A program made the position numbers and the translations under genes. This document shows, piece after piece, positions 11,077 to 47,881 of a stretch of 64,000 bases of DNA. Each line of letters opens with the position of its first letter. The stretch's first letter is position 1. The DNA is from Haplodiscus bocki (Eukaryota): positions 25,358,001-25,422,000 of the forward strand of contig OZ296653.1 in assembly GCA_965655095.1 (NCBI GenBank), written 5' to 3'. The notes under the pieces were generated by a model. The model was not told the DNA's origin. It made no database searches and saw only the letters and a list, made by a program, of their open reading frames with translations.

Positions 11077-11081
11077 CCCAC

Positions 11082-11112
<31 letters not shown>

Positions 11113-12079: not shown

Positions 12080-12251
12080 GAGTAGTGGAATGCATCGAGA
12101 AAGGTCCCAGGTTAGCCTAGGACACTCCCTCTTATTGGTAAAAATCAAGGAACTTATGCGACTTGTGAATGGATCGGAAAAAAAAGATTTCAGAAGCCTG
12201 TGATATAACACTCGTTTGCGCAAATGTAAACACAGTCCAGAAAAAAAGTAA
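12080..12251 (-). CDS. HERC2: Possible small HERC2 exon (boundaries uncertain)
   Basis: Acceptor tttcag|T at 12251 is in phase with the donor at 14797 and opens the frame YFFSGLCL. No clear donor found. Confidence 0.3.
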
Positions 12252-12310
12252 CTGAAACAGACATCGTGTAACGTAGAGTCGAACGTAGGTAAGAATATGA
12301 TTCGCAATCG

Positions 12311-12716: not shown

Positions 12717-12721
12717 ACAGA

Positions 12722-13128: not shown

Positions 13129-13325
13129 ACAATGTATTTATTTGAATCATTGTGACAACAACTACTAAGCAAGACAGAAAGTTGCACTTTTCAGTGCGTT
13201 TGCCATATTTCTTTTTCCAGTACTTTTCCACAACATCTAAAGATTGACTCATTGGCGCAAAAATTCAGAAGAGATTCAGGGAAAATCGAGTTCGAAATTT
13301 AATTATACCAGTACTTCCTCAAATT

Positions 13326-17607: not shown

Positions 17608-17977
17608 CTGAAAGAGCGACAACAAAAAAAAAATATTTAAATTGTGAGACATGACCATTCTGATTACTGATATTTGAAAGAAACACAGCCTCACGAAAAT
17701 GTTTGCGACATTTACTATACATGTGTTTTGAAGGTAACACAACAGGAATAGAAAAAGCATGAAAAACTGATTTTACGCCACTAAAAAGTCGCGATTTAAG
17801 TTTGTACTCCAAACGTTCAACAAAAGCGTTTTAACAGTATGGCATTAATTCAATGACCAGATTTTTTTCAACCTAACGCGATCATATCGAACTTACTTAA
17901 GCTATAATAAAGTTAATGGAATCAAGCAAGTTTTAGATGTTGAAATTGGTGTGTTAGCTATCATTAATTCCACTAAC

Positions 17978-23389: not shown

Positions 23390-23395
23390 TATGTG

Positions 23396-23607
23396 AGTAA
23401 TATAGGGGATGGGGATATTCACAACGGGGGGGGGGATCCTTTGCAAATGTGGGGCTTACAACGGGTCTAATCCTCAATTTTATTTGTTGTTTGACCCAGA
23501 TTTTTCAACTTCGTGACCTACTTTTTTGTTCATGCAAATACTTTGTTTACATTATTGTGTACACTGCACTAGATTATGTAAGGTAACATTCACAGCCTTG
23601 AAGTTAA
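23396..23607 (+). repeat. Maverick left TIR
   Basis: Reverse complement of 47242-47453 with about 9 mismatches by manual comparison. G-run-rich terminus. Confidence 0.95.
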
Positions 23608-24052
23608 GTACTTTTTCAATAAACCTTCTACTAAGAAGGGCTATGAGTTGTATATATGTCATGATGACTTTTCATGCTGCGGCTTTGGGCATTTTGGGAT
23701 TGTATGAATTATAATAATTATAATTATTTCTTTGCCGCTAAATTTCATTACTAATCGTCTCACATTGATGTTTGAATCAAATGTGTCTTCGATTAAATTA
23801 TTGGGTGAACTGTCCAGCCACGTGTACAATGATAAGTTTTTTTATTTTTAATTGTTACATTGGAAAATTAATCATTTCTGGATTTTCTCATGTTCCTTCT
23901 GATTTTTGTGCAAGACTTCAATTACTATGGACACACTGAAATTGAATTCCAGTTGGGGTCCCCTGTTGTATAGCAGGATTTTGAAATCTATAAATAATTG
24001 GGGGACAGTTTCGGAAGTACTTGTTCTTTCGATGTGTGATGCTATTAGCGTG

Positions 24053-24161
24053 AGTAGTACAGGGGATGGGGGTGCTCACAACGGGGGGGGGGGGGGGGGA
24101 AGGGGGGAGGGGGTCCTTTGCAAATGTGGGGCTTACAAAGGGTCTAATCCTCAATTTTATT
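24053..24161 (+). repeat. Second, internal partial copy of the Maverick terminus
   Basis: AGTAGTACAGGGGATGGGGGTGCTCACAACG(n)...TCCTTTGCAAATGTGGGGCTTACA...CCTCAATTTTATT, after which the sequence diverges. Confidence 0.9.
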
Positions 24162-25490: not shown

Positions 25491-28400
25491 CTAAAACTCT
25501 TCACCAGAGCTCAGGATTACATCATGACGTCTTTTTCGTTGCGGTACTTCTTCAGGCTCACTTGTAACTTCCTCAACCGTTTCATCATCAAGGTAGGGAT
25601 TTCTGAATGACGTAGAGATTTCTTGTCCATAGGTTGCATAGAAGTCCGTAGCGTGTTCTCTCATGTCAGTTGCAAGATCAACCAACCAATCGTCATCTAA
25701 ATCAGATTCACTATACTCTTCTTGATGTAAACCAGGATCTGGTGGTGTCCAACTATCATTCAAGATTTCACTAAGGGTGTCGCTATGACCGTCTCGAGCT
25801 CGAGGTGGGGTATTTGAGCGTGGAAGGGTTCTGTTAGATTTGTTATCGAATTGACTGGGGCCATATTCTCTAACTAAAGTTTCCCAGTCTGGACTTGCAA
25901 CAATTTCCTCACCCCAGTCAGGATCTGCTAATATTTCACGGAAAGCCACTCTGTCTCTCACCAAATAATGGCCAAATGGTACAGTTTCGATGCCGTTCTC
26001 TAAAATGTAAAGTTTATCATCGAAAGCGGACAAAGATATTTGCTGCTCGAAATAGTTTCCAATTGATGAAGGGCAGATTCGATGCGTATATTATTGGTTC
26101 TAATGCTGTTGGTTGTTGATAGAACTGTTTTGTAAATATCGTGTTTAAGATTTGTCTGTGCGAATCGAGATACGCCCTTAGCGGAGAGTTTTCGATTATC
26201 TCCAAACTTTATGGAGTACATTTTCGGCTTGAGTCCGACAAAATCTTCAAGAAATTCACCCGCCATCTCGTTTTTGAAGGGAAGTGTAACCATTTTGTTT
26301 CCATTATGATAAAAAGGGTGATTTTGTGGGTAGCTTGAGAAATCGAAGTTTTTTCTCAGGTTTGCATTTCCCGCTAACTCTTTGTAAAGGTCAACATGAT
26401 TTATTTCGTAGAGAAGCGAGTCCGTGTCTGAGTAAAATAGTTGACAATCAAATGCATTTTTCTTAACTTTGTAGTGGAATGAGAACAAGTGAAAATTCGC
26501 AAGTTCGAGAACACATGCTCCGACAGTGGTTGGTTTGTTCCAGTAAATTTTCGTTTCAGTGTTACAGCAGCTAAATTTTCGTCAAAGATTTTGAATGCAT
26601 CAAAGACTTATCAGTGACGCGTTGCGCTTCGCCGATTGATCGTTTTAATTGCACATGAACTCAGTTTCTCTTACTCTCGAGAGTCTTCCCATAGCAGCTG
26701 TTGTTCATCAGCTTGAAAAACCCTTTATGGAAAATGTTAACCGATCGCTGTCTATTCTCTGTGTTGAGCAAGAGGTATGGGCGTAACCAAAGTGATTGAC
26801 GAAACTGCGGAACTCTGTGAACTTTCTTTACTATTAAGCCCAGCTCCACATACAACTTCAAATTGAGATAGTGCACAGTGTAGTTGCTTTTGTTGTTCAG
26901 TGTCTGCATCAGTTTTTGGTGATTCAATTTTTTACTTCCATTTACTCAAATAGTTCAATTGAAATGTATGTATGTCGTAGTTGGATTGTATGTATTGTAT
27001 TAAATTATATGTATGTCGTAGATGTATGTCGTGGTTGGAAGAGTTATGTGCTATGACCGGGATAAAATTTATGCTTCGTCGTTTAAGGTTGCACTGATCG
27101 TGTGCGTAACCTAGAAATTTTCCGGTGTAATGGCAGTGATCTAGAACCTTCAACTCATCAAGGAATCGCTTCTCACAAATCCAACAGTCGGTAACTTGAT
27201 CAATTGAAAAGTCCGGTCTACCTTTGTAGATGCGATGAGTTTGCTTTCTCTGGTAAATTTCCCTTGCAAGTGCTTGAAGATGTATTGCCAATTTTTGCAT
27301 GCACGTTGATGATCGATCTGTAGAAACATGTACCGGTTGCAATGAGCCTCTTTCAATTAACACCAGACAAAAACAGCAAGGTGTGTGCTTTTCCAAAGTG
27401 CGAGTCCAGCTATTTGAGGGATTATTATCACAACTTTGTATGGGAATGACGAGGGATTCCAAATCGAAATATATAACAACTGGAGCAAATGCTCGTGCAT
27501 TGAAGTTTTTGAATTCAACTTTGTCAGCATTTGATGCGGGCATTTCAATTGCTGCTGCTTCTAATTTCACACAATTGTTATGATGATTGATATAACTTTC
27601 CTGTGAGCAAATGTGAAAAGTTACGACACAATTTGTCATCACTTCGTGGTCGTCTCTGTTTAATGTGATTGACTAGGCTCAATATGTTTGTAATGAAAGC
27701 ATAATGATAAATTTGGTCGTCTTGTAAAAGAAGAAGGTCCAGCGTGAACTCAAAGTCGTAATTTTTTGATAAACGCAATGGGAACACCTGTTTATTTTCA
27801 TACCTGAAAACATTTACTTGTACGTTATTGAGAATCTCAAATTTTGCCATGTCTTTGAATCCCATGGGCATTTCAAAGTCCCCTATTGCTTGATGAGCTG
27901 AAGGGGTCACTGCTGTAGAGTGGCGGACTTGTAACTGTTCGCCAAGTATCAGTTTGTAACGGTGGACCGTAGAATAAGTGGTAAGCCGCTGTAAAACAGT
28001 AAAGGAAGCATTTGTTGTCAAGATGGTTACCAATGTTCAACAGGCTCCGTACTCCCTGCAATTCCGATGGTAAAGCTAAGTAAGACGATCCTCTCACCGG
28101 TGCAAAGTTAGCCATTTTCAATTCCAGTTTTGATTTTTGTCCACTATCCACCCACTCCCATGGGCTGTGAATGAGAATAACGTTGGAAGCAATTTGTCTA
28201 TCATCTCGAAAAATGTTTCTTTTGCCAGACCTTGAGCAAAAACAGGAATCATATCCGTGTTCAAATGAACTTCTATCTTGTCGGTATCTTCTTCAATTGG
28301 TTTTTGTAATAGAAGTTTCACTGAAAGTTGTACTTTCACTGGCTGTCGTTGCGAGTTTTCCATCAAAGTTTCTCGAATCAGAGTTTCCTTCTCGAGCAAA

Positions 28401-28780
28401 AATTCTACCAGGTCGTGTTTATCTTCCGTCTCAACTTTGAAGATTTTGAATGTGTCGTTGAAAGCTGAACTGAAGTTTCGGTCGTCTTTTTTATCTGTCT
28501 GATTACGCATGGGAAGTGAGTGCTGTTCACGTAGATGTTTTCTGAAATCTGATTCCGTCATAAAAACTTTCTTGCAGTAAACGCAGATCCGTGACGGCTT
28601 CCCATTGTGTTGGGATGACATGTGCACTTGCATTTCTAATAGTATTTTACAGCTGAAATCACAAGAACTGCAGAATAATTCATGTTCATTCTTGTTCAAG
28701 CCATCAATTTTCTTACGATGTCGATCTAGGTTTTGTCGATTTGCAAAACTTTTGGAACAAATATCACAACGTTGCATTAT
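25491..28780 (-). pseudogene. Protein-primed DNA polymerase B, copy 1: the only copy with the C-terminus, but with a ~1-kb internal deletion and frameshifts
   Basis: N-terminal C2H2 fingers (CDIC...H), YFDLES (ExoI), CWICE...LDHCHYTGKFLGYAHDQCNL, IAHNSSN (ExoII), KLMNNSCYGK (motif B), YSDTDSL (motif C), FVGLKPKMYS, SAFDDK..ILENGIETVPFGHY and an acidic tail. Confidence 0.92.
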
Positions 28781-29275
28781 GAGAACGAATTGAATTGAAA
28801 AAGAATTTTTGTTACAAATGCTTTTGTTTTCTGATTGGTTGAAAGATTCAATCAATTTGAAATCCTATTTTCTTGGATCTTCATTGGCATCTCTCTCTGA
28901 TTGGTTGAAAAAAAGTTTGATTATGAAATTCTTCTTGAGGTAGCCGCTTGCTTGTGCTATGTTGCCACAATCCTTCGCGCTGATGCCTTTCATTTAGAGT
29001 TCACTGTCACTTCCATCTTTTCAGTTGCATAGATTGACTTTTCTACTTCGGGAGAAAAGGACGTTCGCGAGATGACTTTTGTCTTGAACAGTGATACAAA
29101 AAGCTGTCGCAAAACGGAATTTAATTTTTATCAACACTCAAGTATAAATAAAAAAGCGGAAATTCAAGTCGAAAGATCCGACATATCAAAAATAACAAAA
29201 TAGAAGTTTTGATGGCTCATACCAAATTCAGCTTCTCGTTCTCACAGCTCTGAGAAATCGAGTCGTTCCCCAAAC

Positions 29276-29953
29276 TCAAAAAAAAACTCCTGTGATACTT
29301 TTGGGTTTCTTCGGAGCCGGAGGACACTCTTTTTCGTTTGAACCCATTTTCTCAGGAGTCTTGTTGGCACGTAAAAACATCAGCATTTGAAATGTTTCCC
29401 GCTGTTTTCGGCTCTCGATAAACCAGCAAATCACCTTCTTCGGTACTGTTTTCATTGACAAGTGTCTCGAAAGGTGATGGAAGTGTTACTTCTTTCGTCC
29501 TTTGAAATTCTTCTTCCTTGACTATGTCCCAGAACCATTCAAGAGTCTCTAGGTCACTGAAGTACCCCCATCTGATTCTCCGAGAATGGTATTTCTTCAC
29601 AATCGCACTTGAATATTACTTTTTTGACCTGCGTCGGTAACTCCAAGCGATCGACTACTGTTTTTGCTCGATAACTGTTGGTTGACGTTGGGACGTTTTC
29701 AAGAACGGTAGAAATTCTTAGACCTGGATAATTGTTGATTCACGTTGGGACGTTTCCAAGACTGGTAGAAATTCTTGGACCCGATGCTTTCAGTTTTCAG
29801 ATATCCATTAATGGTTTTGGTAACGATACTGAAGTCATATCTTGCCAATCTTCGTCCATCATTTCCCAATAACAACAATTTTATCATTGAACCAAGTTTC
29901 GTAAAATGTGTATCTAGTATAATCGCTAAAGTCAATAAAAGTTTGAATATCAA
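29276..29953 (-). pseudogene. Small Maverick ORFs upstream of pPolB (repeated at 33455-34132 and 37599-38309)
   Basis: Short ORFs, one with a 57-nt internal duplication (SKNFYQSWKRPNVNQQLSR twice, the second W changed to stop) and one ending ECPPAPKKP. Confidence 0.4.
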
Positions 29954-30130
29954 TTTTCATTTCAGAATAAATGTTTCGAGGACTTTAAAAAGCAAGTAGT
30001 TGGTTTTGTCGTAAAAAAAAAGTATGCTAGAATAGTGAAAGAAATCAGAACTTGACAGCAGTTCACTGTTGATGAAAATACTGGTTGTATTTTGTTGGAT
30101 TATCACGAGTTACACAAAAACTGTTTTGCA

Positions 30131-32959
30131 TGTCTGCATCAGTTTTTGGTGATTCAATTTTTTACTCCCATTTGTTCAAATAGTTCAATTGAAAATCGCT
30201 TAAGAACTTTTCTTCAATGTTTTCTTTTGTGGGCGCGAGAGGAAAATCTTTATGTTGATCATGAAGATAGTCGGGGTACTCCAGATCAACCTCAAGAATA
30301 TATCCAACATCTGAATCGAGATCCGTATTGAGAATTTCTTGGATGGGGATCTCAACTTTCTGGAAGTCTTTTAGAGGAAGAGGTAGTTTTTCCATAACCC
30401 CACCATATAAATTGTTAGCGTCCAGAAGTAGTCCAAAACTCGATTCATTATCAGGGTTGAAGCTGTTCATGAACTTTTTGTTCGCTCTGAAAAATCGTTT
30501 CGAGAAGATTGAAGCTACACCGCCTCGAATCACATTTTCGGCCATTTCAAGGTGTTCACGGTCTGTCAAAAGGTGAAGGTCGGCTCGACAAAATTTGATG
30601 AAAGCATCACCTGACAGGTCAGAACTAGTGAAATAATGTGTGCTGTCAAGGCCATATGTGTCTTAACAAAGCTTTCTGAATTCTTCCACTACACAGGCAA
30701 GCAGCAATGTGTCCGTTTTCAAGTACAGGTTGTGATAGTCGCCCAGTGTTTGACAAGCAAAAGTAGCAAAAACTTTTTCAGCATGTGCGTATTCTGTTTC
30801 ATTCAAGAAAATTTCATTGCCATCAAGACTGTTGGTCCAGTAATTTATAGGGGAAGTTGATTTTCTTGGAACTTCTCGAAAGAATCGAAATAACTGTAGG
30901 GATAAAATCCTTTCTGATGTAAAAGCTCTCTTTCTATCGGCTGATAATTTTGAAAGTGGTTGTCTAGTATTTGAAAACTTTCTGTCGGCAGATAACTGAC
31001 CAGCTTCTCCAACGATGAGGGTAAAAAGCGGTAAGAGTCGTTAAACCTCAAGTACTCGTAAACATTGTTAACGACACCTCTCTTATCTGTAAAGAATTGA
31101 CTCTTACACCAACATTTACCGTGATATAATTTTCGTTGGTAACAGGTACAAGTTCAATTTTGCATTCTGACTCGAATTCATGTAAATTCTTACATAAATG
31201 ATGTATGTCGTAGTTGGAAGAGTTATGTGCTATGACCGGGATAAAATTTATGCTTCGTCGTTTAAGGTTGCATTGATCGTGTGCGTAACCTAGAAATTTT
31301 CCGGTGTAATGGCAGTGATCTAGACCCTTCAACTCATCAAGGAATGGCGTCTCACAAATCCAACAGTCGGTAACTTGATCACTTGAAAAGTCCGGTCTAC
31401 CTTTGTAGATGCGATGAGTTTGCTTTCTCTGGTAAATTTCCCTTGCAATTGCTTGAAGATGTATTGCCAATTTTTGCATGCACGTTGATGATCGATCTAT
31501 AGAAACATGTACCGGTTGCAAGGACCCGTTTTCAATTAACACTAGACAAAAACCGCCAGGTGTGTGCTTTTCCAAAGTGCGAGTCCAGCTATTTGAGGGA
31601 TTATTATCACAACTTTGTATGGGAATGACGAGGGATTCCAAATCGAAATATATAACAACTGGAGCAAATGCTCGTGCATTGAAGTTTTTGAATTCAACTT
31701 TGTCAGCATTTGATGCGGGCATTTCAATTGCTGCTGCTTCTAATTTCACACAATTGTTATGATGATTGATATAACTTTCCTGTGAGCAAATGTGAAAAGT
31801 TACGACACAATTTGTCATCACTTCGTGGTCGTCTCTGTTTAATGTGATTGACTAGGCTCAATATGTTTGTAATGAAAGCATAATGATAAATTTGGTCGTC
31901 TTGTAAAAGAAGAAGGTCCAGCGTGAACTCAAAGTCGTAATTTTTTGATAAACGCAATGGGAACACCTGTTTATTTTCATACCTGAAAACATTTACTTGT
32001 ACGTTATTGAGAATCTCAAATTTTGCCATGTCTTTGAATCCCATGGGCATTTCAAAGTCCCCTATTGCTTGATGAGCTGAAGGGGTCACTGCTGTAGAGT
32101 GGCGGACTTGTAACTGTTCGCCAAGTATCAGTTTGTAACGGTGGACCGTAGAATAAGTGGTAAGCCGCTGTAAAACAGTAAAGGAAGCATTTGTTGTCAA
32201 GATGGTTACCAATGTTCAACAGGCTCCGTACTCCCTGCAATTCCGATGGTAAAGCTAAGTAAGACGATCCTCTCACCGGTGCAAAGTTAGCCATTTTCAA
32301 TTCCAGTTTTGATTTTTGTCCACTATCCACCCACTCCCATGGGCTGTGAATGAGAATAACGTTGGAAGCAATTTGTCTATCATCTCGAAAAATGTTTCTT
32401 TTGCCAGACCTTGAGCAAAAACAGGAATCATATCCGTGTTCAAATGAACTTCTATCTTGTCGGTATCTTCTTCAATTGGTTTTTGTAATAGAAGTTTCAC
32501 TGAAAGTTGTACTTTCACTGGCTGTCGTTGCGAGTTTTCCATCAAAGTTTCTCGAATCAGAGTTTCCTTCTCGAGCAAAAATTCTACCAGGTCGTGTTTA
32601 TCTTCCGTCTCAACTTTGAAGATTTTGAATGTGTCGTTGAAAGCTGAACTGAAGTTTCGGTCGTCTTTTTTATCTGTCTGATTACGCATGGGAAGTGAGT
32701 GCTGTTCACGTAGATGTTTTCTGAAATCTGATTCCGTCATAAAAACTTTCTTGCAGTAAACGCAGATCCGTGACGGCTTCCCATTGTGTTGGGATGACAT
32801 GTGCACTTGCATTTCTAATAGTATTTTACAGCTGAAATCACAAGAACTGCAGAATAATTCATGTTCATTCTTGTTCAAGCCATCAATTTTCTTACGATGT
32901 CGATCTAGGTTTTGTCGATTTGCAAAACTTTTGGAACAAATATCACAACGTTGCATTAT
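30131..32959 (-). pseudogene. pPolB copy 2 (N-terminal ~two-thirds)
   Basis: Retains FNDSYRFLPSSLEKLV, KGFYPYSYFDS, IRGG and LLLDANNLYGGVM (motif A). Truncated before motif B. Confidence 0.9.
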
Positions 32960-34309
32960 GAGAACGAATTGAATTGAAAAAGAATTTTTGTTACAAATGC
33001 TTTTGTTTTCTGATTGGTTGAAAGATTCAATCAATTTGAAATCCTATTTTCTTGGATCTTCATTGGCATCTCTCTCTGATTGGTTGAAAAAAAGTTTGAT
33101 TATGAAATTCTTCTTGAGGTAGCCGCTTGCTTGTGCTATGTTGCCACAATCCTTCGCGCTGATGCCTTTCATTTAGAGTTCACTGTCACTTCCATCTTTT
33201 CAGTTGCATAGATTGACTTTTCTACTTCGGGAGAAAAGGACGTTCGCGAGATGACTTTTGTCTTGAACAGTGATACAAAAAGCTGTCGCAAAACGGAATT
33301 TAATTTTTATCAACACTCAAGTATAAATAAAAAAGCGGAAATTCAAGTCGAAAGATCCGACATATCAAAAATAACAAAATAGAAGTTTTGATGGCTCATA
33401 CCAAATTCAGCTTCTCGTTCTCACAGCTCTGAGAAATCGAGTCGTTCCCCAAACTCAAAAAAAAACTCCTGTGATACTTTTGGGTTTCTTCGGAGCCGGA
33501 GGACACTCTTTTTCGTTTGAACCCATTTTCTCAGGAGTCTTGTTGGCACGTAAAAACATCAGCATTTGAAATGTTTCCCGCTGTTTTCGGCTCTCGATAA
33601 ACCAGCAAATCACCTTCTTCGGTACTGTTTTCATTGACAAGTGTCTCGAAAGGTGATGGAAGTGTTACTTCTTTCGTCCTTTGAAATTCTTCTTCCTTGA
33701 CTATGTCCCAGAACCATTCAAGAGTCTCTAGGTCACTGAAGTACCCCCATCTGATTCTCCGAGAATGGTATTTCTTCACAATCGCACTTGAATATTACTT
33801 TTTTGACCTGCGTCGGTAACTCCAAGCGATCGACTACTGTTTTTGCTCGATAACTGTTGGTTGACGTTGGGACGTTTTCAAGAACGGTAGAAATTCTTAG
33901 ACCTGGATAATTGTTGATTCACGTTGGGACGTTTCCAAGACTGGTAGAAATTCTTGGACCCGATGCTTTCAGTTTTCAGATATCCATTAATGGTTTTGGT
34001 AACGATACTGAAGTCATATCTTGCCAATCTTCGTCCATCATTTCCCAATAACAACAATTTTATCATTGAACCAAGTTTCGTAAAATGTGTATCTAGTATA
34101 ATCGCTAAAGTCAATAAAAGTTTGAATATCAATTTTCATTTCAGAATAAATGTTTCGAGGACTTTAAAAAGCAAGTAGTTGGTTTTGTCGTAAAAAAAAA
34201 GTATGATAGAATAGTGAAAGAAATCAGAACTTGACAGCAGTTCACTGTTGATGAAAATACTGGTTGTATTTTGTTGGATTATCACGAGTTACACAAAAAC
34301 TGTTTTGCA

Positions 34310-37134
34310 TGTCTGCATCAGTTTTTGGTGATTCAATTTTTTACTCCCATTTGTTCAAATAGTTCAATTGAAAATCGCTTAAGAACTTTTCTTCAATGTT
34401 TTCTTTTGTGGGCGCGAGAGGAAAATCTTTATGTTGATCATGAAGATAGTCGGGGTACTCCAGATCAACCTCAAGAATATATCCAACATCTGAATCGAGA
34501 TCCGTATTGAGAATTTCTTGGATGGGGATCTCAACTTTCTGGAAGTCTTTTAGAGGAAGAGGTAGTTTTTCCATAACCCCACCATATAAATTGTTAGCGT
34601 CCAGAAGTAGTCCAAAACTCGATTCATTATCAGGGTTGAAGCTGTTCATGAACTTTTTGTTCGCTCTGAAAAATCGTTTCGAGAAGATTGAAGCTACACC
34701 GCCTCGAATCACATTTTCGGCCATTTCAAGGTGTTCACGGTCTGTCAAAAGGTGAAGGTCGGCTCGACAAAATTTGATGAAAGCATCACCTGACAGGTCA
34801 GAACTAGTGAAATAATGTGTGCTGTCAAGGCCATATGTGTCTTAACAAAGCTTTCTGAATTCTTCCACTACACAGGCAAGCAGCAATGTGTCCGTTTTCA
34901 AGTACAGGTTGTGATAGTCGCCCAGTGTTTGACAAGCAAAAGTAGCAAAAACTTTTTCAGCATGTGCGTATTCTGTTTCATTCAAGAAAATTTCATTGCC
35001 ATCAAGACTGTTGGTCCAGTAATTTATAGGGGAAGTTGATTTTCTTGGAACTTCTCGAAAGAATCGAAATAACTGTAGGGATAAAATCCTTTCTGATGTA
35101 AAAGCTCTCTTTCTATCGGCTGATAATTTTGAAAGTGGTTGTCTAGTATTTGAAAACTTTCTGTCGGCAGATAACTGACCAGCTTCTCCAACGATGAGGG
35201 TAAAAAGCGGTAAGAGTCGTTAAACCTCAAGTACTCGTAAACATTGTTAACGACACCTCTCTTATCTGTAAAGAATTGACTCTTACACCAACATTTACCG
35301 TGATATAATTTTCGTTGGTAACAGGTACAAGTTCAATTTTGCATTCTGACTCGAATTCATGTAAATTCTTACATAAATGATGTATGTCGTAGTTGGAAGA
35401 GTTATGTGCTATGACCGGGATAAAATTTATGCTTCGTCGTTTAAGGTTGCATTGATCGTGTGCGTAACCTAGAAATTTTCCGGTGTAATGGCAGTGATCT
35501 AGACCCTTCAACTCATCAAGGAATGGCGTCTCACAAATCCAACAGTCGGTAACTTGATCACTTGAAAAGTCCGGTCTACCTTTGTAGATGCGATGAGTTT
35601 GCTTTCTCTGGTAAATTTCCCTTGCAATTGCTTGAAGATGTATTGCCAATTTTTGCATGCACGTTGATGATCGATCTATAGAAACATGTACCGGTTGCAA
35701 GGACCCGTTTTCAATTAACACTAGACAAAAACCGCCAGGTGTGTGCTTTTCCAAAGTGCGAGTCCAGCTATTTGAGGGATTATTATCACAACTTTGTATG
35801 GGAATGACGAGGGATTCCAAATCGAAATATATAACAACTGGAGCAAATGCTCATGCATTGAACTTTTTGAATTCAACTTTGTCAGCATTTGATTCGGGCA
35901 TTTCGATTGCTGCTGCTTCTAATTTCACACAATTGTTATGATGATTGATATAACTTTCCTGTGAGCAAATGTGAAAAGTTACGACACAATTTGTCATCAC
36001 TTCGTGGTCGTCTCTGTTTAATGTGATTGACTAGACTCAATATGTTTGTTATGAAAGCATAATGATAAACTTGGTCGTCTTGTAAAAGAAGAAGGTCCAG
36101 CGTGAACTCAAAGTCGTAATTTTTGATAAACGCAACGGGAACACCTATTTGTTTTCATACCTGAAAACATTTACTTGTACGTTATTGAGAATCTCAAAGT
36201 TTGCCATGTCTTTGAATCCGATGGGCATTTCAAAGTCCCCTATTGCTTGATGAGCTGAAGGGGTCACTGCTGTAGAGTGGCGGACTTGTAACTGTTCGCC
36301 AAGTATCAGTTTGTAACGGTGGACCGTAGAATAAGTGGTAAACCGCTGTAAAACAGTAAAGGAAGCATTTGTTGTCAAGATGGAAACCAATGTTCAACAG
36401 GCTCCGTACTCCCTGCAATTCCGATGGTAAAGCTAAGTAAAACGATCCTCTCACCGGTGCAAAGTTAGCCATTTTCAATTCCACAGTTTTGATTTTGTCC
36501 ACTATCCACCCACTCCCATGCGCTGTGAATGAGAATAACGTTGGAAGCAATTTGTCTATCATCTCGAAAAATGTTTCTTTTGCCAGACCTTGAGCAAAAA
36601 CAGGAATCATATCCGTGTTCAAATGAATTTCTATCTTGTCGGTGTCTTCTTCAATTGGTTTTTGTAAAAGAAGTTTCACTGAAAGTTGTACTTTCACTGG
36701 CTGTCGTTGCGAGTTTTCATCAAAGTTTCTCCAATCAGAGTTTCCTTCTCGAGCAAAAATTCTACCAGGTCGTGTTTATCTTCCGTCTCAACTTTGAAGA
36801 TTTTGAATGTGTTGTTGAAAGCTGAACTGAAGTTTCGGTCGTCTTTTTTATCTGTCTGATTACGCATGGGAAGAGAGTGCTGTTCACATAGATGTTTTCT
36901 GAAATCTGATTCCGTCATAAAAACTTTCTTGCAGTAAACGCAGATCCGCGACGGCTTCCCATTGTGTTGGGATGACATGTGCACTTGCATTTCTAATAGT
37001 GTTTTACAGCTGAAATCACAAGAACTGCAGAATAATTCATTTTCATTCTTGTTCAAGCCATCAATTTTCTTACGATGTCGATCTAGGTTTTGTCGATTTG
37101 CAAAACTTTTGGAACAAATATCACAGCGTTGCAT
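34310..37134 (-). pseudogene. pPolB copy 3 (N-terminal ~two-thirds)
   Basis: Same motifs as copy 2, with private substitutions and frameshifts. Confidence 0.9.
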
Positions 37135-38879
37135 TTTGAGAACGAATTGAATTGAAAACGAATTTTTGTCGCAAAGGCTTTTGTTTTCTGATTGTTTGAA
37201 AGATTCAATCATTTTGAAATCCTATTTTCTTGGATCTTCATTGGCACCTCTCTCTGATTGGTTGAAAAAAAGTTTGATTTTGAAATTCCTCTTGAGCTAG
37301 CCGCTTGCTTGTGCTATGTTGCCACAATCCTTCCTGCTGATGTCTTTCATTTAGAGTTCACTGTCACTTCCATCTTTTCAATTGAATAGATTGACTTTTC
37401 TACTTCGGGAGAAAGGGACCTTCGCAAGATGACTTTTGTCTTGAACAGTGATACAAAAAGCTGATGCAAAACGGAATTTATTTTTTATCAACACTCAAGT
37501 ATAAATAAAAAAGCGGAAGTTCAAGTCGAAAGATCCGACATATCAAAAATAACAAAATACAAGTTTTGATGGCTCATACCAAATTCAGCTTCTCCTTCTC
37601 ACAGCTCTGAGAAATTGAGTCGTTCCCGAAACTCAAAAAAAACTCCTGTGATACTTTTGGGTTTCTTCGGAGCCGGAGGACACTCTTTTTCGTTTGAACC
37701 CATTGTTTCAGGAGTCTTCTTGGCACGTAAAAACATCAGCATTTGAAATGTTTCCCGCTGTTTTCGGCTCTCGATAAACCAGCAAATCACCTTCTTCGGT
37801 ACTGTTTTCATTGACAAGTGTCTCGAAAGGTGATGGAAGTGTTACTTCTTTCGTCCTTTGAAATTCTTCTTCCTTGACTATGTCCCAGAACCATTCAAGA
37901 GTCTCTAGGTCACTGAAGTACCCCCATCTGATTCTCCGAGCATGGTATTTCTTCACAATCGCACTTGAATATTACTTTTTTGACCTGCGTCGGTAACTCC
38001 AAGCGATCGACTACTGTTTTTGCTCGATAACTGTTGGTTGACGTAGGGACGTTTTCAAGAACGGTAGAAATTCTTAGACCTGGATAATTGTTGATTCATG
38101 TTGGGACGTTTCCAAGACTGGTAGAAATTCTTGGACCCGATGCTTTCAGTTTTCAGATATCCATTAATGGTTTTGGTAACGATACTGAAGTCATATCTTG
38201 CCAATCTTCGTCCATCATTTCCCAATAACAACAATTTTATCATTGAACCAAGTTTCGTAAAATGTGTATCTAGTATAATCGCTAAAGTCAATAAAAGTTT
38301 GAATATCAATTTTCATTTCAGAATAAATGTTTCGAGGACTTTAAAAAGCAAGTAGTTGGTTTTGTCGTAAAAAAAAAAGTATGATAGAATAGTGAAAGAA
38401 ATCAGAACTTGACAGCAGTTCACTGTTGATGAAAATACTGGTTGTATTTTGTTGGATTATCACAAGTTCCACAAAAACTGTTTTGCATGTCAAAAACCTA
38501 CGTTTTGGTACGTAAATTCAAACAAAGTCTAGACATCTAATTTCTTATCACGCATAGTCCAGACATCCTATCTCTTTCAAGTTGACGATGTGTACAAAAA
38601 ATGAAAGTCTGATGTTTCGGCGTCTATCTTTTCTTTGCGATGTGATTGTAAACAAAAGCTCTTATCACATGTATTCGCTCCATGTTTGGTTGCTATGGTT
38701 TCTACGATGTGCGCTTTGCTAGTACTTAACCTAGATATGTTTATTTTTTTGATTGATGAATATGAACTAGGTCAGAAGGTAAACACATGAACCCAACTTT
38801 CATTCTTTTCAACATTAGTTTCTCTGTTCAGTTAACTTCCTAGTCAATCTCAGTTTCACTACTTTTCAACTTTAATTTT

Positions 38880-40119: not shown

Positions 40120-41405
40120 AGAAAAATGTTTTTCGATACTTTGCGGAAGGAAACGATGTAAATTGTTGGAGACTTTTCTCCCAGAAAGAACAGCTCTAGG
40201 CTGTCTGTTAGTTCAGCTGAGAAGCGCAAATCAATTGATATGGAGCCGTTGGTTAACTCAGGTTAGAGATAGTCGTGAGAAGCCTGTTGGGTGCTTGTAA
40301 GGTCGAATACTAAAACGTAGTGGTTTGGAAAGTCGGAAAATGGAACATCAAGGCCGTGAGATTCCAATGGAAGAGCCTCGTGAGAGTTTAGGTAAAGTTT
40401 TTATTGTTGTCTGTCTGTAGTGGTGTTGCAGCAATGGGATAACCATTCCGGTACACCTTAATGTTCTCTAGGTTGAACTTCTGGTAGTGAAAAGGATTGT
40501 CAGCTTTCGAGCCAAGGCTTTGTTTGTTGTCATCGCCAAAGCAAAACGTCGGATAGGTTCGCGATTAAAAATGTCCTCATGGTTCCAACTTTTCGAACCT
40601 GTCGAAACTAGAGAAGTTTTTGGTATCATTTTTGTGTATCTGCAGATTGCAGGTGTCTTCGTTAGGGTACTTTCAATTGCAGAATAAACATTTTCAGAAA
40701 CTGTCATTTTACGTACATACAAATTTGCTGGTGATATTTCAATCTTGTAATCTTTATATTCATCATCATAAATCAAACAGAATTCGCGATTATTTCTGAG
40801 AAAAGATACCCGGAGGGCTACGCCGCTGATGAGATGTTTCTCGCAAGAGAAAATATCAGCTGCAACTTTGCCAATAAATGTAACTACTGCAGACCGTTTT
40901 GTCTCATTTTGACGCTCTATAAACACAACATCGGTAAAAGTGTCGGGTGATTTTTCGTAGGAATATCCTTGACACTTCAACCATGTGTCCTAAGCCTCTC
41001 TATTATGAGAAAACTCTGGCTCGATGAAAGCTTTCTGCGCATAGTTTCCATTGGATGAAGAAATTTTCATGCCATTTGCAGAGACACTGCAATCAGAAAC
41101 TAACGAGTGTAATGTGTTGTTGACGAAAATGGGTAAATCACTTGCCGCTGCATCTCCAGTGGTGAAACGAAGCCTATTGCTGTCCGACTGAAGAATTTTG
41201 CACTTCACTTCGAGGTAGATATTCTAAATCGACGAAGTTGGTTCTATCTCCTACTACTTCGAACTCTAAAGTAGGTCCGTTTGGAGAATAAAGGGGTCCA
41301 ACCTTCTGCTCAAATGAAGCATCAAATGTGATCAGAACTGGGGTCTTTCGAATAGATCCCACGAGCTATGCGATGCTTCAACTGGTAGAACGTTAGGTAA
41401 CATTT
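40120..41405 (-). pseudogene. Major capsid protein (double jelly roll, PY)
   Basis: GPTLEFEV, NNTLHSL..DCSVSANG..ISSSNGNYAQKAFIE, ANLYVRKMTV, PIRRFALAM and YVLVFDLTS. Frameshifted. Confidence 0.88.
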
Positions 41406-41779: not shown

Positions 41780-42595
41780 CTTTGAGCGAGAACTACTCTT
41801 CCTGTGCCAACAAAAGGAACTTAATTTCCAGTAGGTGTGACTGAATTCAACACTAGTTTTTCGAATTGCAACTCCGTGAATGTTTTATGAGTTGTAGAAG
41901 ATGTGATATTGAGCTTACCGTCTGTTAGCTTTCTTCCTGTATCAATGACGCGTAATATTGGTGCTTTGGCGCCAACAACGTGTTGCTGTTCTTTGATGTT
42001 GCCGTTAACAAAAAAGATTCCTGTTCGTGAAAGAATATCGGCTGGAAAGTCTCCTTTCATTGGCTGTGTTTGATTCCGTACCTTGTTGTGCGTTCCGATG
42101 AAGTATCCACCTCGAGTGGTGTCAGGGACACCACTAAACCGTAATACGTCCAATAAGCTGCGGTCTCGAACACTGATGCCATAGCCTTCTGCAAACTCCA
42201 GCTCAACCGTTTTCTGTTCACAACTTGCTTTCAGGAGTGGTTTGTTGAATACTGTAGCCTTTTTTAGTATTTCCAAGATATTCTCTATGCTTTCAATTTC
42301 TCCGTCTGGGAATGTTGCGTTGCTGGAAAAATCCGGACGTTGAACTATCACGCCTGCAAAAGCTGAGCGGTTGAGATTAGACAAAATTTATTTCGCCGTG
42401 CGAGGTGTGTAAATGAAGTAATCCTTTGTTACATTTTTGATATTAGAAGGAAACGTAATTTCTCCCAATGCAACTCGCCAGTCTCCATCCAAATGCAGGA
42501 GTTCAGAGAGCACGTTGCGAAAGTATGCCATTTTGTTGTTTTGGTAGGTTTGCGTTGAACCGGTTGACTCTAAAGAGATCAAATTCGTCCACTTT
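41780..42595 (-). pseudogene. Minor capsid/penton (PX)
   Basis: LESTGS..YQNNKMAYFRNVL..LHLDGDWRVALGEITFP, FFVNGNI..QHVVGAKAPILRVI and VPFVGTG. Confidence 0.85.
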
Positions 42596-43495
42596 CAGCG
42601 AATTCTTATCAGTTCTGGTTCATAAAACTTTCCTTGAATGTTTTCACCAATTTTGTCAGCCAATGAATACGTAGGCGGATTGAATGTTGCAATATTGGTA
42701 ACCCGAAAAACTTCATCAGTGAAATTTTTTCTGTAACCTTTCTTGAAGGTTGAATCTTCTTTTGCAATTTGAACCCTGTTGACTATTTTATATCTTGGTT
42801 TCCGAACCATTTTCCTCGTTAGCTCAGCTTGTAATGAAATTAATTTTGGAACATGTCGCATCGAGATTTTATTTGGTGCTAAGCCAGTCATTCTGTTGAC
42901 GCGAGAATTGATCGTTTGTACAAATGATTGCAAATCGTTCATGTAGTGATACGACCACTTGTTCTCTAAATGTTTGTATATGTTTCTCAAGGACCGGATG
43001 TTTCTTTCGGCAAAGGCTGACTTCGCTTCACTATGAACTGAGTACGTTGCAATCTCATTGCTTTGGCAAAAACGTTCAAAAGCACCTCTGAATTCAGTTC
43101 CCTTGTCCGACCAAACTTTGTGGTTTCTTCTTTATCATTCGAGCAAAGGATTTTGCAGTTTGCTCTGCGGATTTGGAGCGCATGGGTTCCACTCTTAGTT
43201 TCCGTGACAGAACGTCAACAGCAACCAGTAAATATTTTACTCCATGATTATACTTGGCTAACTTGTCAACGTAGGCCACATCAATGTCGTATGAGATAAC
43301 TTTGAGACGTGGAAACTTTCGGCGGAACTGCCTGTACTTTGTGTGAGCATTTTTGTTTCTCAAGAATGATTTCAATTTTTTTCCGGGGTAGTTTACTTGC
43401 TTTTTGTAAGTTGGTTATACTTCCGTAGGCTGCTGGTCCTTTCCGATAGAGTAAATCTATTTTTTTCCTCGTCGTTAGATTTGATCCCAGCGTCT
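42595..43495 (-). pseudogene. Retroviral-like (rve) integrase of Maverick type
   Basis: YRKGPAAYGS, KYLLVAVDVLSR, WSDKGTEF, KSAFAERNIR, FKKGYRKNFTDEVF and GKFYEPEL. DDE residues present; frameshifted; no chromodomain seen. Confidence 0.92.
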
Positions 43496-43559
43496 CGTTG
43501 GGCTCTTTTCTTCCTCAGGATCGTCGATAGAGGACGCATCATCGGAAGAGATACTTGCC

Positions 43560-44119
43560 AAATGTCGTTTTTTGCGAGTTCTGTTTTTCCGGGTACTGAT
43601 TCCAACCCTTTTCTTACCGCTTGCTGTTTGCAAGTATGATTTGGCCGTTGAATTAGGGATCAAATGAGGTGAAATGTCATTTTTGTCGAGAAATTTTTTA
43701 AAGTCTGGATCGAGCAGGCCTCTTTTCGGTTGTTGTAGGTTATAAGGGAAATTGGTTGTTTCAATCTAAGTTTCTCTGTCGCCAATTTTTAGAAAACCAT
43801 CTTCGCTTATTGAAACATTGTCTGAATCAAAAATTTTCCGGAGAATCGGTTTGCTTTTTTCTATCTGCCATGGTTTGATCATTGACAGGGATTTCAGCAC
43901 TCTTTTCTCGATGATTTATTTCTGCAATGGGCTCCACTGAGGTCTTTTATTCAGCTTCTCATCCTGTTCAACTGTTTCTGAAGATTTTTGCTGTCTTTGA
44001 AGCAAAGATATTATTTGTGCTTTCTGGTTTATCGTTGCATCATCTAAAACTTCCAGCGTTTTCGGTTGTTGTTTAACGTAGTTCTCTTTTGGTATAAGAA
44101 TAAATTCTTGAGAAGTCAT
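43560..44119 (-). pseudogene. Conserved Maverick ORF (PZ-like)
   Basis: MTSQEFILIPKENY..., ISEDGFLKIG, YNLQQP and IPNSTAK, located immediately upstream of the integrase. Confidence 0.5.
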
Positions 44120-44360
44120 GGTGTAAAAGTACGAGCTGACTGGTCGACTGATCACTGAGTAATTTGATTCCTTTGGTTGATGCAAGTGTCCTTCTTCTTT
44201 TCTCAGCCTCGCAAGGGACTTTGCCGTTTATAATATTTACCGCGCATTCGCATATGAATTTGATTGCGTCATCGTTACACTCACAGATGAAGCTTTTGTA
44301 GTCCTTCTTGTTCTTTGTACTCTGTGAATGCTTCAGTGTAAGCTCGTTTTTCTCGTTCAT
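44073..44360 (-). pseudogene. Conserved small Maverick ORF (ICECxxNIxxGxVP family)
   Basis: AIKFICECAVNIINGKVP motif, positioned between the ATPase and the PZ-like ORF. Confidence 0.6.
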
Positions 44361-45001
44361 TTGTCAGATTCGTTTCTCTGGCAATTTCGGAAGGTATATG
44401 AGATATGCTGGCACCTGGTGCTGTAATATTGGAACAAAAATGTAAGCACTCGCTAGTTTTGGATCTAAGTTATTCAAAAAGTGTCCGTAGGGTTCCAAGG
44501 GTGCTCTGGTAAAAAAATCTCGTATGAACTCAACTTTATTCAGCTACCTGCCGAAGTGATCAATTTGTTGTAAATCGCGTGGTGACTTGAACAAAATGAG
44601 GGGAGTTGTATTGAGGTCAATGGTATGCGACCACTTACTCTGATGAAATAAATTATGTTTCACGAAAATGCAATGAACTTTTTGTCTTCCGGCAACAGCA
44701 AGTTTCACAAACTCTTTTTCCTGATAAATCTCTTCGCATGAATCATCGAAAACTAGTAGGCAATCCTCTAGCTTCTTGATCATGCTGAAATATAGACAGG
44801 GAACAAACTCTATATCCAAATTCTTAGCCACCTCGTTAAATACAGGTTGATACTCTTTGTAAAAATAGAACGTTTTTTTTTGAAACTGGGACGAAATGTT
44901 TTGGAAGCTAACATGGAAAAAATTAGTCTAGTCTTCCCGGATCCACCAGGACCAACAACGGACATGAAAAGACGGTCGCTTGTGAAAATTATTTCGTTCA
45001 T
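44360..45001 (-). pseudogene. FtsK/HerA-family genome-packaging ATPase
   Basis: Walker A VVGPGGSGKT, Walker B LLVFDD, AVAGR, IDLNTT.LILFKSPRD and PYGH. Frameshifted. Confidence 0.92.
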
Positions 45002-45275
45002 AACCGTGGGCTAGGAAGTATATATCCAACTGCAGCTGACAAGACTGATACCCAAAATGGCATATCCTCACAGGGAACTTCATAGAAGGTGAGCTTAATA
45101 AGACACGATATGATTACAATCAACAGTGTAATTGCTTGGAAAAAAATACAACTTCCGATCTAGGTAATGTTGTGGAATTGCAAAACTTCCAAGCGGACCT
45201 TTCGCTATGATTCTCATCAAATACTAAATCTTCAACGTTAATCGCTTCTTCGCAGTCAACTGTTCGGTCTTCCAT
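45000..45275 (-). pseudogene. Small two-TM membrane protein
   Basis: RSEVVFFS-LIVIISCLIKLTF...FWVSVLSAAVGYILPSPRL, directly upstream of the ATPase. One frameshift. Confidence 0.6.
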
Positions 45276-45365
45276 CCTCCAAAAAAATGAATAGTTACTC
45301 AAAGTTAATTGAAATGAAGCAGATACTTTCACAATCATACGTAAAATACGTTTATATTAAATTCA

Positions 45366-45602
45366 TCACTTCTTGAAAGTCACTCGGTATTGACATTTCG
45401 TTCTTCTCCCATATGGAGGTAAATAGGCAATTTCCAGAATATCTTTTCGGGATTTGAGTTCTTCCGCAATCTGTTTGGGTAATAGATGATCATCGATGCC
45501 GGATAATATGATGGGATCAGGTGGTGGTGGTAGCTCCAGCAGTTGGATTTTCAGCTCCTTCATCAAGTTCTGCAGACGTTGGTTTGACATTTTTCTAATC
45601 AA
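45366..45602 (-). CDS. Hypothetical Maverick protein
   Basis: Open 78-aa frame co-oriented with its neighbours. No motif recognised. Confidence 0.4.
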   Translation of the reverse strand: MIRKMSNQRLQNLMKELKIQLLELPPPPDPIILSGIDDHLLPKQIAEELKSRKDILEIAYLPPYGRRTKCQYRVTFKK

Positions 45603-45750
45603 TGAATTGGAGGAAGGAATCTATGGAGTTTGCGCTACACTTCAGGTGAAAATAATCTGCTGGAGATATATTGATAACTGTTTTCCGTAAAAGTTTGCGA
45701 TCGCCAATTTTTGTGTACTCTTCTTTAACGAAGTCTATCGAACAATTGTT

Positions 45751-46392
45751 CTAATGATTACTTGTTGTCGCATTTTGTATTGTTGATACCGAAATTGTTG
45801 GGTTCGGGGATAAGAGACAAGTCGTAGGTTGTCTTTGATCATTTGGTCCGCTGCAATGTTGGCAAGGTTGTTCTTGCTGGTATTGTTGTTGTTGTTGTGG
45901 TTGTTGTTGGCAACAGGTGATCCAATCGAAGAACAAACTAGCTTTCTCTCTTGCGCAGTGGTCCCTGTGGTACTTATTTTGGTGGTTCAAGCAGATGAAA
46001 CCATCCGTTTTATTGAACTCTGAGGATTTTGGACAACTTAGCGTGTCCAAGTCGATGGTGTGCGGGAAAAAACTACTCAAATACTCACACTTTTCTCTAC
46101 CCTTTGCGTACACCAGTATGTTCGGGAATCGCAATTTGAGGCTAAGGAAGAAACAGAAGACGAATGAACAATCGTAATTACCAGAATCCCAAGTTAGACC
46201 GTGTAAGTTTTTTGTTACCCAGTTATACGATTTCAGAGCTTTGGCGTTGAGAATGTTGGAACTATCTGGATGTCTTAATAAAATAGTGTCGTGGTAGTCT
46301 ACGCCCCGGACTGATAATTCCTTCAAGATAAAAGGTTGATTTGTCAAAGGATAGACTTCAAAATCGATAACAACTGGTTGAGGGCTGAGCAT
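45751..46392 (-). CDS. DEDD-type 3'-5' exonuclease-like protein with a poly-Q tail
   Basis: VIDFEVY (ExoI D-x-E), FILKELSV, WVTKNLHGLTWDSG, KGREKCEYL and C..H....HCA. Frame is intact. Confidence 0.65.
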   Translation of the reverse strand: MLSPQPVVIDFEVYPLTNQPFILKELSVRGVDYHDTILLRHPDSSNILNAKALKSYNWVTKNLHGLTWDSGNYDCSFVFCFFLSLKLRFPNILVYAKGREKCEYLSSFFPHTIDLDTLSCPKSSEFNKTDGFICLNHQNKYHRDHCAREKASLFFDWITCCQQQPQQQQQYQQEQPCQHCSGPNDQRQPTTCLLSPNPTISVSTIQNATTSNH

Positions 46393-46589
46393 TGCAATGC
46401 ACTGATGGATACGTTGAGGCACTTTTTCCTGACGCGAGATAGTCAAGACTGATTTCGTTTTCTGGATAATTATAGTAACATAAATGCTCAGCTGTAATAG
46501 GTTGAAAAGTATACCTGTGTAGCAAACTAAGTATTTTATTTCGAAAATCTAAACCAATCAGATAACGATGGTGTTTCATCAGGACTGTT

Positions 46590-46820
46590 CTAGTGGCATC
46601 TCCAATGTAAAAATGCTGCTCTTATCAGGTGAAGAAAAACTACAACTGATATTAATTGGATGAGAATATTTGTGTTATAGGAGAAACAAACTGCGTCCTT
46701 CGAAACAGCTTCAGTGGTTTTCGGAGGGATCTGCAGAAGGGTAGTTTGCACCGTGGATGAATTCCAGAAACGATCTATCAACAAGAGAGACATACTGTAA
46801 AAAACGACTGTGAGCCACAA
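46590..46820 (-). CDS. Small putative membrane protein
   Basis: Hydrophobic N-terminus, Ser/Thr-rich linker and a second hydrophobic stretch ILIQLISVVVFLHLI. Confidence 0.4.
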   Translation of the reverse strand: MWLTVVFYSMSLLLIDRFWNSSTVQTTLLQIPPKTTEAVSKDAVCFSYNTNILIQLISVVVFLHLIRAAFLHWRCH

Positions 46821-46860
46821 TAAAATCTAATGAAATGAAAAAGTGTGTCTGTCAATGGTA

Positions 46861-47163
46861 TCATAAAAATTTTTCACACCTTTTGCCACCATATAGAGAT
46901 TTGCAAAAACATGCTACTACCAGAGGATCTCTCAGACGAACACGTTTTCCTCCATTCAAGCAGTAACCTCGGTATTTTGGTGAGCATTCAAGTGAAACGG
47001 TTTTTAATGTCGAACTTGTTACCCGTAGCTTTTCTGTTACATCTTCACTACTATCCATGCGAGGTTTGCTACGATGATTGAGAACTACAGCAAGTACACC
47101 GGCCGCTAGTAGGAATAGGCCAACAAGAACTATGGCAGCAAATAGCTGATGTTTGTTGAACAT
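46861..47163 (-). CDS. Signal/anchor plus EGFR-ligand-type EGF-domain protein (viral growth factor-like); Cys3 changed to Arg
   Basis: Hydrophobic FAAIVLVGLFLLAAGVLAVVL, then C-SPKYRGY-C-LNGGK-[R]-VRLRDPLVVA-C-F-C-KSLYGGKR-C. This is the x7/x5/x10/x1/x8 spacing with YxGxRC. Confidence 0.85.
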   Translation of the reverse strand: MFNKHQLFAAIVLVGLFLLAAGVLAVVLNHRSKPRMDSSEDVTEKLRVTSSTLKTVSLECSPKYRGYCLNGGKRVRLRDPLVVACFCKSLYGGKRCEKFL

Positions 47164-47241
47164 TGTGATTTTCATCACAGGTATTTTTTAGAACACACTT
47201 GGGTGGAAAATTAAGGTGTCTGACGCCTTGGATGTTTTTAA

Positions 47242-47453
47242 TTAACTTCAAGGCTGTGAATGTTACGTTACATAATCTAGTGCAGTGTACACAATAATGC
47301 AAACAAAGTATTTGCATGAACAAAAAAGTAGGTCACAAAGTTGAAAAATTTGGGTCAAACAACAAATAAAATTGAGGATTAGACCCGTCGTAAGCCCCAC
47401 ATTTGCAAAGGACCCCCCCCCCCGTTGTGAACACCCCCATCCCCTATACTACT
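47242..47453 (-). repeat. Maverick right TIR
   Basis: Ends CCCCTATACTACT and is followed by the TSD TATGTG. Confidence 0.95.
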
Positions 47454-47881
47454 TATGTGATAAGTTTATCACAGCTAAATTGAAAGTCGACTGCAAAAGC
47501 TAATAAAAAGAAAGCTTAGCATGAACTAGTTCTGTAACATAGTACAACAATTGTACAACGCAAGTTCCGATTCAATAACTTCAAATTCTCTCGCAATACA
47601 TGAGCGAACACAATTTTCTCCGACAAGTTTTTGTGAATGAACAAAAATTTCATCGACCAGAGTTCTCACAAGAAATCAGACATGTAAAAATGTGAAGCAT
47701 TTTAAAAAAAAAATCTGTTCAAACATGTTGCGGGCCAGACATACCGACCACGAGCCATCTATGTGGGCAGCGGCTTTACAAAACTCGAGTTTACGCTTAG
47801 CTTATTAAAGATCTTTTTAAATACTACTTTTGATTCCGATATTCCTCAGCTCTAACTAAATCCCATGACGGAACACTCGTA

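Follow-up and report, generated by a model that had tools for sequence, protein, structure and literature searches.

Mavericks in the genome of Haplodiscus bocki carry a real, family-wide accessory gene for a single ligand-like EGF module, and in family B, one of three divergent families in which it occurs, this gene was under purifying selection while the element was active. Comparison with the host genome makes it likely that the gene was captured from the host's own EGFR-ligand gene. The copy in the window, as the 64,000-nucleotide stretch of DNA analysed here is called, is a fossil that has lost one disulfide Cys and a conserved Trp after Cys6. The surrounding genome measures 1.5 Gb in the own-genome search; with 38% GC and many Mavericks, it resembles the genome described in the available text of PMC6451197.

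Self-comparison of the window delimits a 24,058-bp Maverick at 23396-47453, which has terminal inverted repeats (TIRs) with AGT-type ends and a 6-bp target-site duplication (TSD) on both sides (Table 1). Its genes are broken, and integrase, ATPase, and PolB survive as fragments. Family C homologues of PolB and the retroviral-like integrase score above the Pfam cut-offs for DNA_pol_B_2 and rve. Matches to Pox_A32 (E 3-4e-4, families A and C) and Peptidase_C5 (E 0.012, family B) lie below the curated cut-offs, and the gene order is that expected for a Maverick. The ORFs in the capsid positions have the expected size and place and gave no Pfam or PDB sequence match; the putative minor capsid fragment likewise had no match in a Pfam search. 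Triplication of the PolB region has inflated the element to 24 kb, and the ~4.18-kb units of these repeats (window 26900-38500) are 97-100% identical to each other. A second terminus-like copy lies at ~24054-24160, ~660 bp inside the left end, and matches part of the right TIR at 85%. The window also holds a host HERC2 gene (5425-17830, reverse strand) with very large exons, including open frames of 1785 and 1012 codons, and with only 42-48% identity to any listed animal HERC2. Its first ~680 residues are unmatched in the window, so the Maverick may sit upstream of or inside HERC2.

Table 1. Features of the Maverick in the window (positions are those of the window).
Feature	Position	Strand	Remarks
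Left TSD, TATGTG	23390..23395	.	6 bp, matches right side
Left TIR	23396..23610	+	215 nt, 95% complementary to right TIR
PolB region (protein-primed), fragmented, tandemly triplicated	26000..37221	-	Repeats of a ~4.18-kb unit; fragments match a family C ORF with DNA_pol_B_2 at 2.8e-14
Putative major capsid protein fragment	40468..40989	-	Named from position and size only; 71% identity to a 440-aa family C ORF before the protease-position ORF
Putative minor capsid protein fragment	41821..42387	-	Named from position only; conserved after integrase in families A and C
Retroviral-like integrase, two frames	42595..43414	-	rve E 7.6e-4; family C homologue above Pfam cut-off
A32-like packaging ATPase fragment	44544..44927	-	Pox_A32 3-4e-4 in sister and family C homologues
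Conserved Maverick ORF between EGF gene and ATPase, function unassigned	45751..46548	-	Conserved in all three families (A-C); w 0.37 for shared variants in family A, p 3e-5
EGF-ligand-like accessory gene, decayed copy	46861..47163	-	100 codons and stop; first gene inside right TIR
EGF module, Cys1-Cys6	46876..46986	-	Third-Cys position (46942-46944) is Arg in the window copy
N-terminal hydrophobic segment, residues 6-29 (putative signal peptide or type II signal anchor)	47077..47148	-	Kyte-Doolittle 19-window 3.0
Right TIR	47239..47453	-	215 bp; upstream of EGF gene in 29/30 family-A loci
Right TSD, TATGTG	47454..47459	.	6 bp

The EGF gene occupies an ORF that runs from stop to stop at 46861-47187 on the reverse strand, with an ATG at 47163, at a distance of 76 bp from the TIR's inner end (47239). 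Its 100-residue product consists of a 24-residue uncharged, hydrophobic segment (residues 6-29), a stalk of ~30 residues, and an EGF module (residues 60-96) with GYCL, YGGKRC, and the predicted ligand-type Cys spacing. This position and layout were noticed in an earlier reading made from the letters alone (hereafter, the sequence-only reading), and every part of that description is seen. The codon expected to encode the third Cys is CGT (Arg), and the frame ends four residues after Cys6, past EKFL. The best PDB sequence matches of this decayed protein are EGF, epiregulin, neuregulin, betacellulin, and TGF-alpha, and the top 22 of 32 PDB matches (E<=10) are all EGFR/ErbB ligands or one ligand-like venom peptide. 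A Pfam search with the window protein returned no match, an unbroken sister copy scores above the Pfam EGF cut-off, and the best ESM Atlas score of the window protein (0.84) serves as a lead only. The ligand matches in the PDB and the score of the sister copy rule out a chance ORF.

Searching the genome with the window gene gave 4723 candidates, and all of the 150 that were scored match. Family A, as used here, is the set of the 30 best near-full loci, the window copy included. The TIR lies just upstream of the gene in 29 of these loci, and downstream element sequence follows in all 30. The start Met, the third Cys, and the Arg before Cys6 are each present in 24 of the 30 copies. Five residues after Cys6, Trp is found in 21 copies and a stop codon in 6, and 27 copies stop three codons further on. 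Only eight copies are open through the six Cys, the Arg, and this Trp; the same residues are the commonest in their respective columns. Because these marks are kept across the family, the window copy is a decayed member of a family-wide gene. The columns bear out both repairs proposed in the sequence-only reading, a Cys in place of the CGT codon and a decayed TGG at the stop. They also dispose of the case in which the ORF would be absent from sister copies and the gene a one-off host fragment, since it is a heritable accessory gene of the whole family. Among the family-A loci, one copy (L172:200-6300) has about six tandem ~1.02-kb repeats over the integrase's N-terminal part. A piece of family A also turned up in a JGI metagenome, as a 1.3-kb contig (L148) with 95.6% identity to window 45677-46987. 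For window 42500-47450 no RNA run is listed; two sequencing runs, whose kind is unrecorded, span it entirely as contigs with many variant copies and are uninformative on expression.

Apart from the third Cys of the window copy, the six-Cys module with ligand-type spacing and the Tyr, Gly, and Arg residues is present in the family. A profile of 22 family members finds ErbB ligands or one ligand-like peptide in the best 28 of 33 PDB matches. The Arg before Cys6, the Tyr-Gly-Gly motif, and a hydrophobic residue five positions after Cys6 are invariant or near-invariant among these 22 members and recur in the host ligand; they are the receptor-binding residues of EGF. The predicted structure of an unbroken family-A copy has a mean pLDDT of 74, falling below 50 at the C-terminal end. 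In a fold search of the PDB with this model, neuregulin, epiregulin, EGF, and Spitz rank first, all with E above 0.001. Among viral proteins, the growth factor of rabbit fibroma virus comes first (E 0.02), and EGF-domain proteins of the Esparto and Kallithea viruses are also returned. The sequence-only reading had assigned the module to the EGFR-ligand type and not to the calcium-binding repeats. Sequence, profile, and fold searches agree with it in placing EGFR/ErbB ligands first, as do the conserved Tyr, Gly, and Arg. Calcium-binding or tandem EGF repeats of the Notch or fibrillin type were rejected on two grounds: the single module ends a ~100-residue frame, and proteins of that type rank under the ligands in the profile and fold searches.

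A modelled complex between the unbroken family-A module and a fish EGFR ectodomain scores 0.55, compared with 0.01 for the best of three controls, and at least 78% of contacts recur between runs, with a partner pLDDT of at least 69. Of 78 solved pairs, 51 attain the score mark applied, as do 2 of 108 mismatched pairs, and the range at or below 0.60 holds only 5 solved pairs and all 4 passing mismatches. Similar complexes have already been solved, so the weak support that the model gives speaks to likeness only. In families A (sister L002), B, and C, the charges flanking the hydrophobic segment favour an N-in, C-out orientation. In this orientation the module is predicted to be lumenal; it would be set free by signal peptidase or, alternatively, stay tethered as a type II protein. 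The net charge of the module is basic in family A (+6) and acidic in the host ligand and in families B and C (-1 to -4); with its charge reversed, the family A protein may behave differently toward a receptor.

The weaker matches of the genome search belong to families B and C, two further Maverick families with the same kind of EGF gene upstream of the same block, which comprises the unassigned ORF, ATPase, integrase, putative capsid genes, and protease. Their ATPases are ~42% (family B) and 81% (family C) identical to that of family A, and the EGF proteins share ~31-40% identity between families. For family B, 7306 candidates yielded at least 150 matches. The ATPase lies downstream of its EGF gene in 17 of 19 loci, Maverick genes were found in 16 of 19 further loci, and 18 of 30 copies are open with six Cys and the Arg. 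In family C, an AGTAGT terminus lies 445-517 bp upstream of the EGF gene in 13 of 15 loci, and 10 of the 15 are open. The gene is thus adjacent to the TIR in families A and C but not in family B, in which it is internal, more than 4.8 kb inside the element. The parallel with poxviruses that keep a growth factor gene at their genome ends, drawn in the sequence-only reading, therefore fits families A and C, fails for family B, and is a loose one overall. Three structural peculiarities were observed in these families. In a family B subfamily (L031-L040), a ten-residue unit with an extra Cys is present in duplicate ahead of the EGF module. At L097, five tandem units of ~1.8 kb each contain the C-terminal part of the family-B EGF gene, with no match to any other element ORF. 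Family C (L170:7177-9192, L166) has a long Lys/Arg-rich repeat frame after PolB that is open in several frames and recalls core proteins of the histone-H1 or protamine type.

The EGF gene is not universal among Mavericks. When 20 elements were picked by their ATPase alone (Pox_A32 search), none had an EGF gene within ~6.5 kb upstream of the ATPase, in keeping with the earlier view that it is not a core Maverick gene; Mavericks in this genome can do without it. Nineteen of the 20 belong to another, AT-rich class that is unrelated to families A-C by BLAST. This class of A32-ATPase elements (L185-L203) has many open frames and is abundant, with 5172 candidates in the genome search.

A search of 1.84 billion representative proteins returned 40 proteins, mostly of 80-120 residues and with the same layout and tail. 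One named match comes from Convolutriloba macropyga. Three multi-member clusters (9, 10, and 23 members) lie on long ENA contigs, and none has a close copy among the 150 candidates scored in the genome studied here (best 48%, 45%, and none at 1e-14). Their absence there suggests that other genomes carry such multi-copy short EGF ORFs. A scan of IMG/VR gave 16 pattern matches, of which none was confirmed. Among 17 loci from a JGI metagenome scan, only L148 matches the element's DNA or ORFs; the 11 others whose frames were read encode mostly ordinary EGF-repeat or neuregulin-like proteins. One library protein (P0029) proved to be a false match, a repetitive bacterial-type protein.

Selection was assessed by separating private variants (one copy), taken to be mostly post-insertion, from variants in at least three copies, taken to stem mostly from the element's active life. 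Since the copies are related, counts of shared variants are not independent events. Purifying selection is clear for family B: in its EGF module (59 copies), N/S is 69/13 for private variants (w 1.04) versus 16/15 for shared ones (w 0.21; Fisher p 0.0011). This result is unchanged without CpG sites and at higher sharing thresholds. The family B ATPase, used as a control, gives w 0.79 private and 0.06 shared; constraint on the EGF module is thus weaker than on the ATPase. The evidence is suggestive for family C, with N/S of 21/10 private versus 0/3 shared in the module (14 copies, p 0.048) and p 0.15 for the whole gene. In family A (30 copies), the difference is not significant (w 0.96 private, 0.72 shared with N/S 35/15, p 0.48), whereas the ORF next to it, taken from the same set of copies, gives w 1.13 versus 0.37 (p 3e-5). 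Of the 10 amino-acid variants common to at least five family A copies, 9 precede the EGF module, which leaves a test of the module with low power. The expectation in the sequence-only reading of dN/dS below 1 therefore holds for family B, is suggestive for family C, and is not significant in family A, the family of the window copy. A host-domesticated gene is ruled out by the neutral private variants (w ~1). One mark of a virokine, a gene that a virus-like element encodes and selection maintains, is thus seen in family B, with suggestive evidence in C and a non-significant result in A.

The candidate donor was reached through a library match (P0041), a full type I precursor with signal peptide, stalk, EGF module, transmembrane helix, and tail. 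In an Atlas comparison, P0041 resembles gurken-like (0.96) and pro-neuregulin-4 (0.94) clusters. Its tail led to a host gene at G000:C6 ~82.21-82.24 Mb with six matched exons: a signal peptide exon, an EGF module interrupted between Cys4 and Cys5 by a GT-AG intron, a transmembrane exon, and tail exons. The element's ORFs have no match in the 64 kb surrounding this locus. A splice site between Cys4 and Cys5 and a module next to a transmembrane helix are given as marks of ErbB ligands in the available text of PMC1618406, and the host gene shows both. Compared exon-wise with the host ligand, the EGF module is 63% identical in family A (27/43) and 49% in each of families B and C (21/43), and the likeness extends to the aromatic tail that follows Cys6. 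In the Maverick genes the Cys4/Cys5 intron is absent, the frame ends with the post-Cys6 tail ahead of the membrane anchor, and there is no cytoplasmic tail, as expected for a captured and shortened form. Capture from spliced host RNA would be the simplest reading of the intronless form. A tree of 27 EGF modules over 46 columns, from which three modules that do not fit the extraction pattern were left out, has stars on 3 of 24 inner branches and no usable root; it shows neither a single origin nor the direction of transfer. The signalling proposed in the sequence-only reading needs a host receptor, and the same genome has one: domain I and cysteine-rich exons of an EGFR gene lie at C4 6.76-6.80 Mb, with closest database matches at 36-49% identity. 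The ectodomain is spread over several exons, and a stretch of 60 kb yielded none for domain III. Another receptor-L-domain gene, more divergent, lies at G000:C5 26.35-26.39 Mb (L134, L135) and is possibly a second EGFR-like receptor.

Taken with the anchorless form of the gene, these comparisons point to the Maverick EGF protein having probably acted as an EGFR-activating virokine, an agonist encoded by a captured host ligand mRNA and freed from shedding control. An ancestral element would have acquired the ligand as a spliced copy that ended immediately after the EGF module. The N-terminal hydrophobic segment would direct the product into the secretory pathway, where it would either be cleaved off to leave a soluble protein or remain as a type II anchor that holds the EGF module on the outer side. 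Lacking a C-terminal anchor, the ligand would need no sheddase and could signal in an autocrine, intracrine, or paracrine manner, uncoupled from host control. Activation of EGFR and ERK would then induce the infected cell or its neighbours to divide or gather and so provide cells in which the element could replicate and integrate. The step that frees the ligand is modelled on EGF without its anchor, for which the available text of PMC2133076 reports uninterruptible autocrine or intracrine signalling.

The protein could instead have bound the host EGFR to dampen or bias its signalling, for example in wound, regeneration, or defence responses. Agonists and antagonists cannot be separated by sequence, the complex model is silent on activation, and family A has a changed loop along with its reversed charge. 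However, the Arg before Cys6, the Tyr-Gly-Gly motif, and the hydrophobic residue after Cys6 are kept in all or nearly all of the 22 members as in the host ligand, and the available text of PMC2133076 credits poxvirus ligands that lack the anchor with promoting proliferation; a decoy thus appears unlikely. Still less probable is a gene that is functional in families B and C and already relaxed or repurposed in family A, for instance as a matrix- or heparan-binding tether. The net charge of +6 and the lack of a significant purifying signal in family A would fit such a change. Against it, the six Cys, the Arg, and the Trp remain the commonest residues in their columns, family A is the closest of the families to the host ligand, and its shared amino-acid variants avoid the module.

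A host mRNA fragment that hitch-hikes in Mavericks without benefit to the element is the most improbable of these readings. Nematode Mavericks do take up host cargo near their ends, according to the available text of 10.1101/2022.07.12.499685, and the ATPase-picked elements lack the gene within ~6.5 kb upstream. Yet an open frame with the same ends has been kept in families whose ATPases are only ~42% identical, similar short multi-copy ORFs occur in what seem to be other genomes, and the shared variants of family B (w 0.21) largely refute passive cargo for that family.

The agonist reading can be extended, tentatively and with considerable doubt, to a Maverick that counterfeits the host's wound or regeneration signal, whose anchorless ligand would draw in or activate the pluripotent adult stem cells that make the germline. 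The parallel is with the acoel Hofstenia, in which, according to the available text of PMC13046036, a single-EGF transmembrane neuregulin acts through EGFR to gather proliferating neoblasts at wounds without raising their number; it would apply if the host is an acoel, a lead that draws on the Convolutriloba macropyga match, long branches, and the Maverick-rich genome with 38% GC. If true, such recruitment of stem cells would explain the very high copy numbers of Mavericks.

Large DNA viruses, poxviruses among them, are known to mimic growth factors. The closest likeness is to the leporipoxvirus growth factors of Shope fibroma and myxoma viruses, which in the available text of PMC2133076 resemble the Maverick protein in having a hydrophobic segment at the N terminus and a single EGF module and in lacking a C-terminal anchor. 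In contrast to these factors, the Maverick gene resides in an integrating invertebrate element of 15-25 kb rather than in a large cytoplasmic mammalian poxvirus, can be traced to a ligand gene that the host itself carries, and is known here from sequence alone. Host single-EGF transmembrane ligands (Spitz, Gurken, LIN-3, and neuregulin-4 type, and the NRG-1 architecture of Hofstenia) have the same Cys spacing and tail, whereas the Maverick genes lack the Cys4/Cys5 intron, the transmembrane helix after the module, and the cytoplasmic tail. Accessory regions of Mavericks are described in the available text of PMC8097293. Like the EGF gene, the accessory genes of adintoviruses (Oncoids, Bcl2, IAP, PLA2X, and gasdermin-like; PMC8502044, available text) lie outside the core module and would manipulate the cell cycle or biology of the host. 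The cargo of nematode Mavericks (WASP proteases, KRMA kinases, and the MFUS-1 fusogen; 10.1101/2022.07.12.499685, available text) is also outside the core module. The products of these known accessory genes work within the cell, at membranes, or as toxins, whereas the EGF gene would encode an extracellular receptor ligand, a class that goes unmentioned in the texts searched. The literature searched, whose reach did not extend to subscription journals and Repbase entries, contained no report of an EGF gene in Mavericks, Polintons, or adintoviruses. The term EGF does not occur in the available main texts of PMC8502044, PMC8097293, 10.1101/2022.07.12.499685, and 10.64898/2026.10.13.758929, or in the available supplements of the first two.

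A transposon that stays inside the cell would have little use for a ligand released outside it. Growth-factor mimicry kept by selection in divergent families of these elements would be independent evidence that they lived as viruses with a stake in neighbouring cells. With the donor gene and the receptor in the same genome, the capture, shortening, and divergence of a virokine become directly traceable. The finding also opens to test how Mavericks reach the germline and amplify in it.
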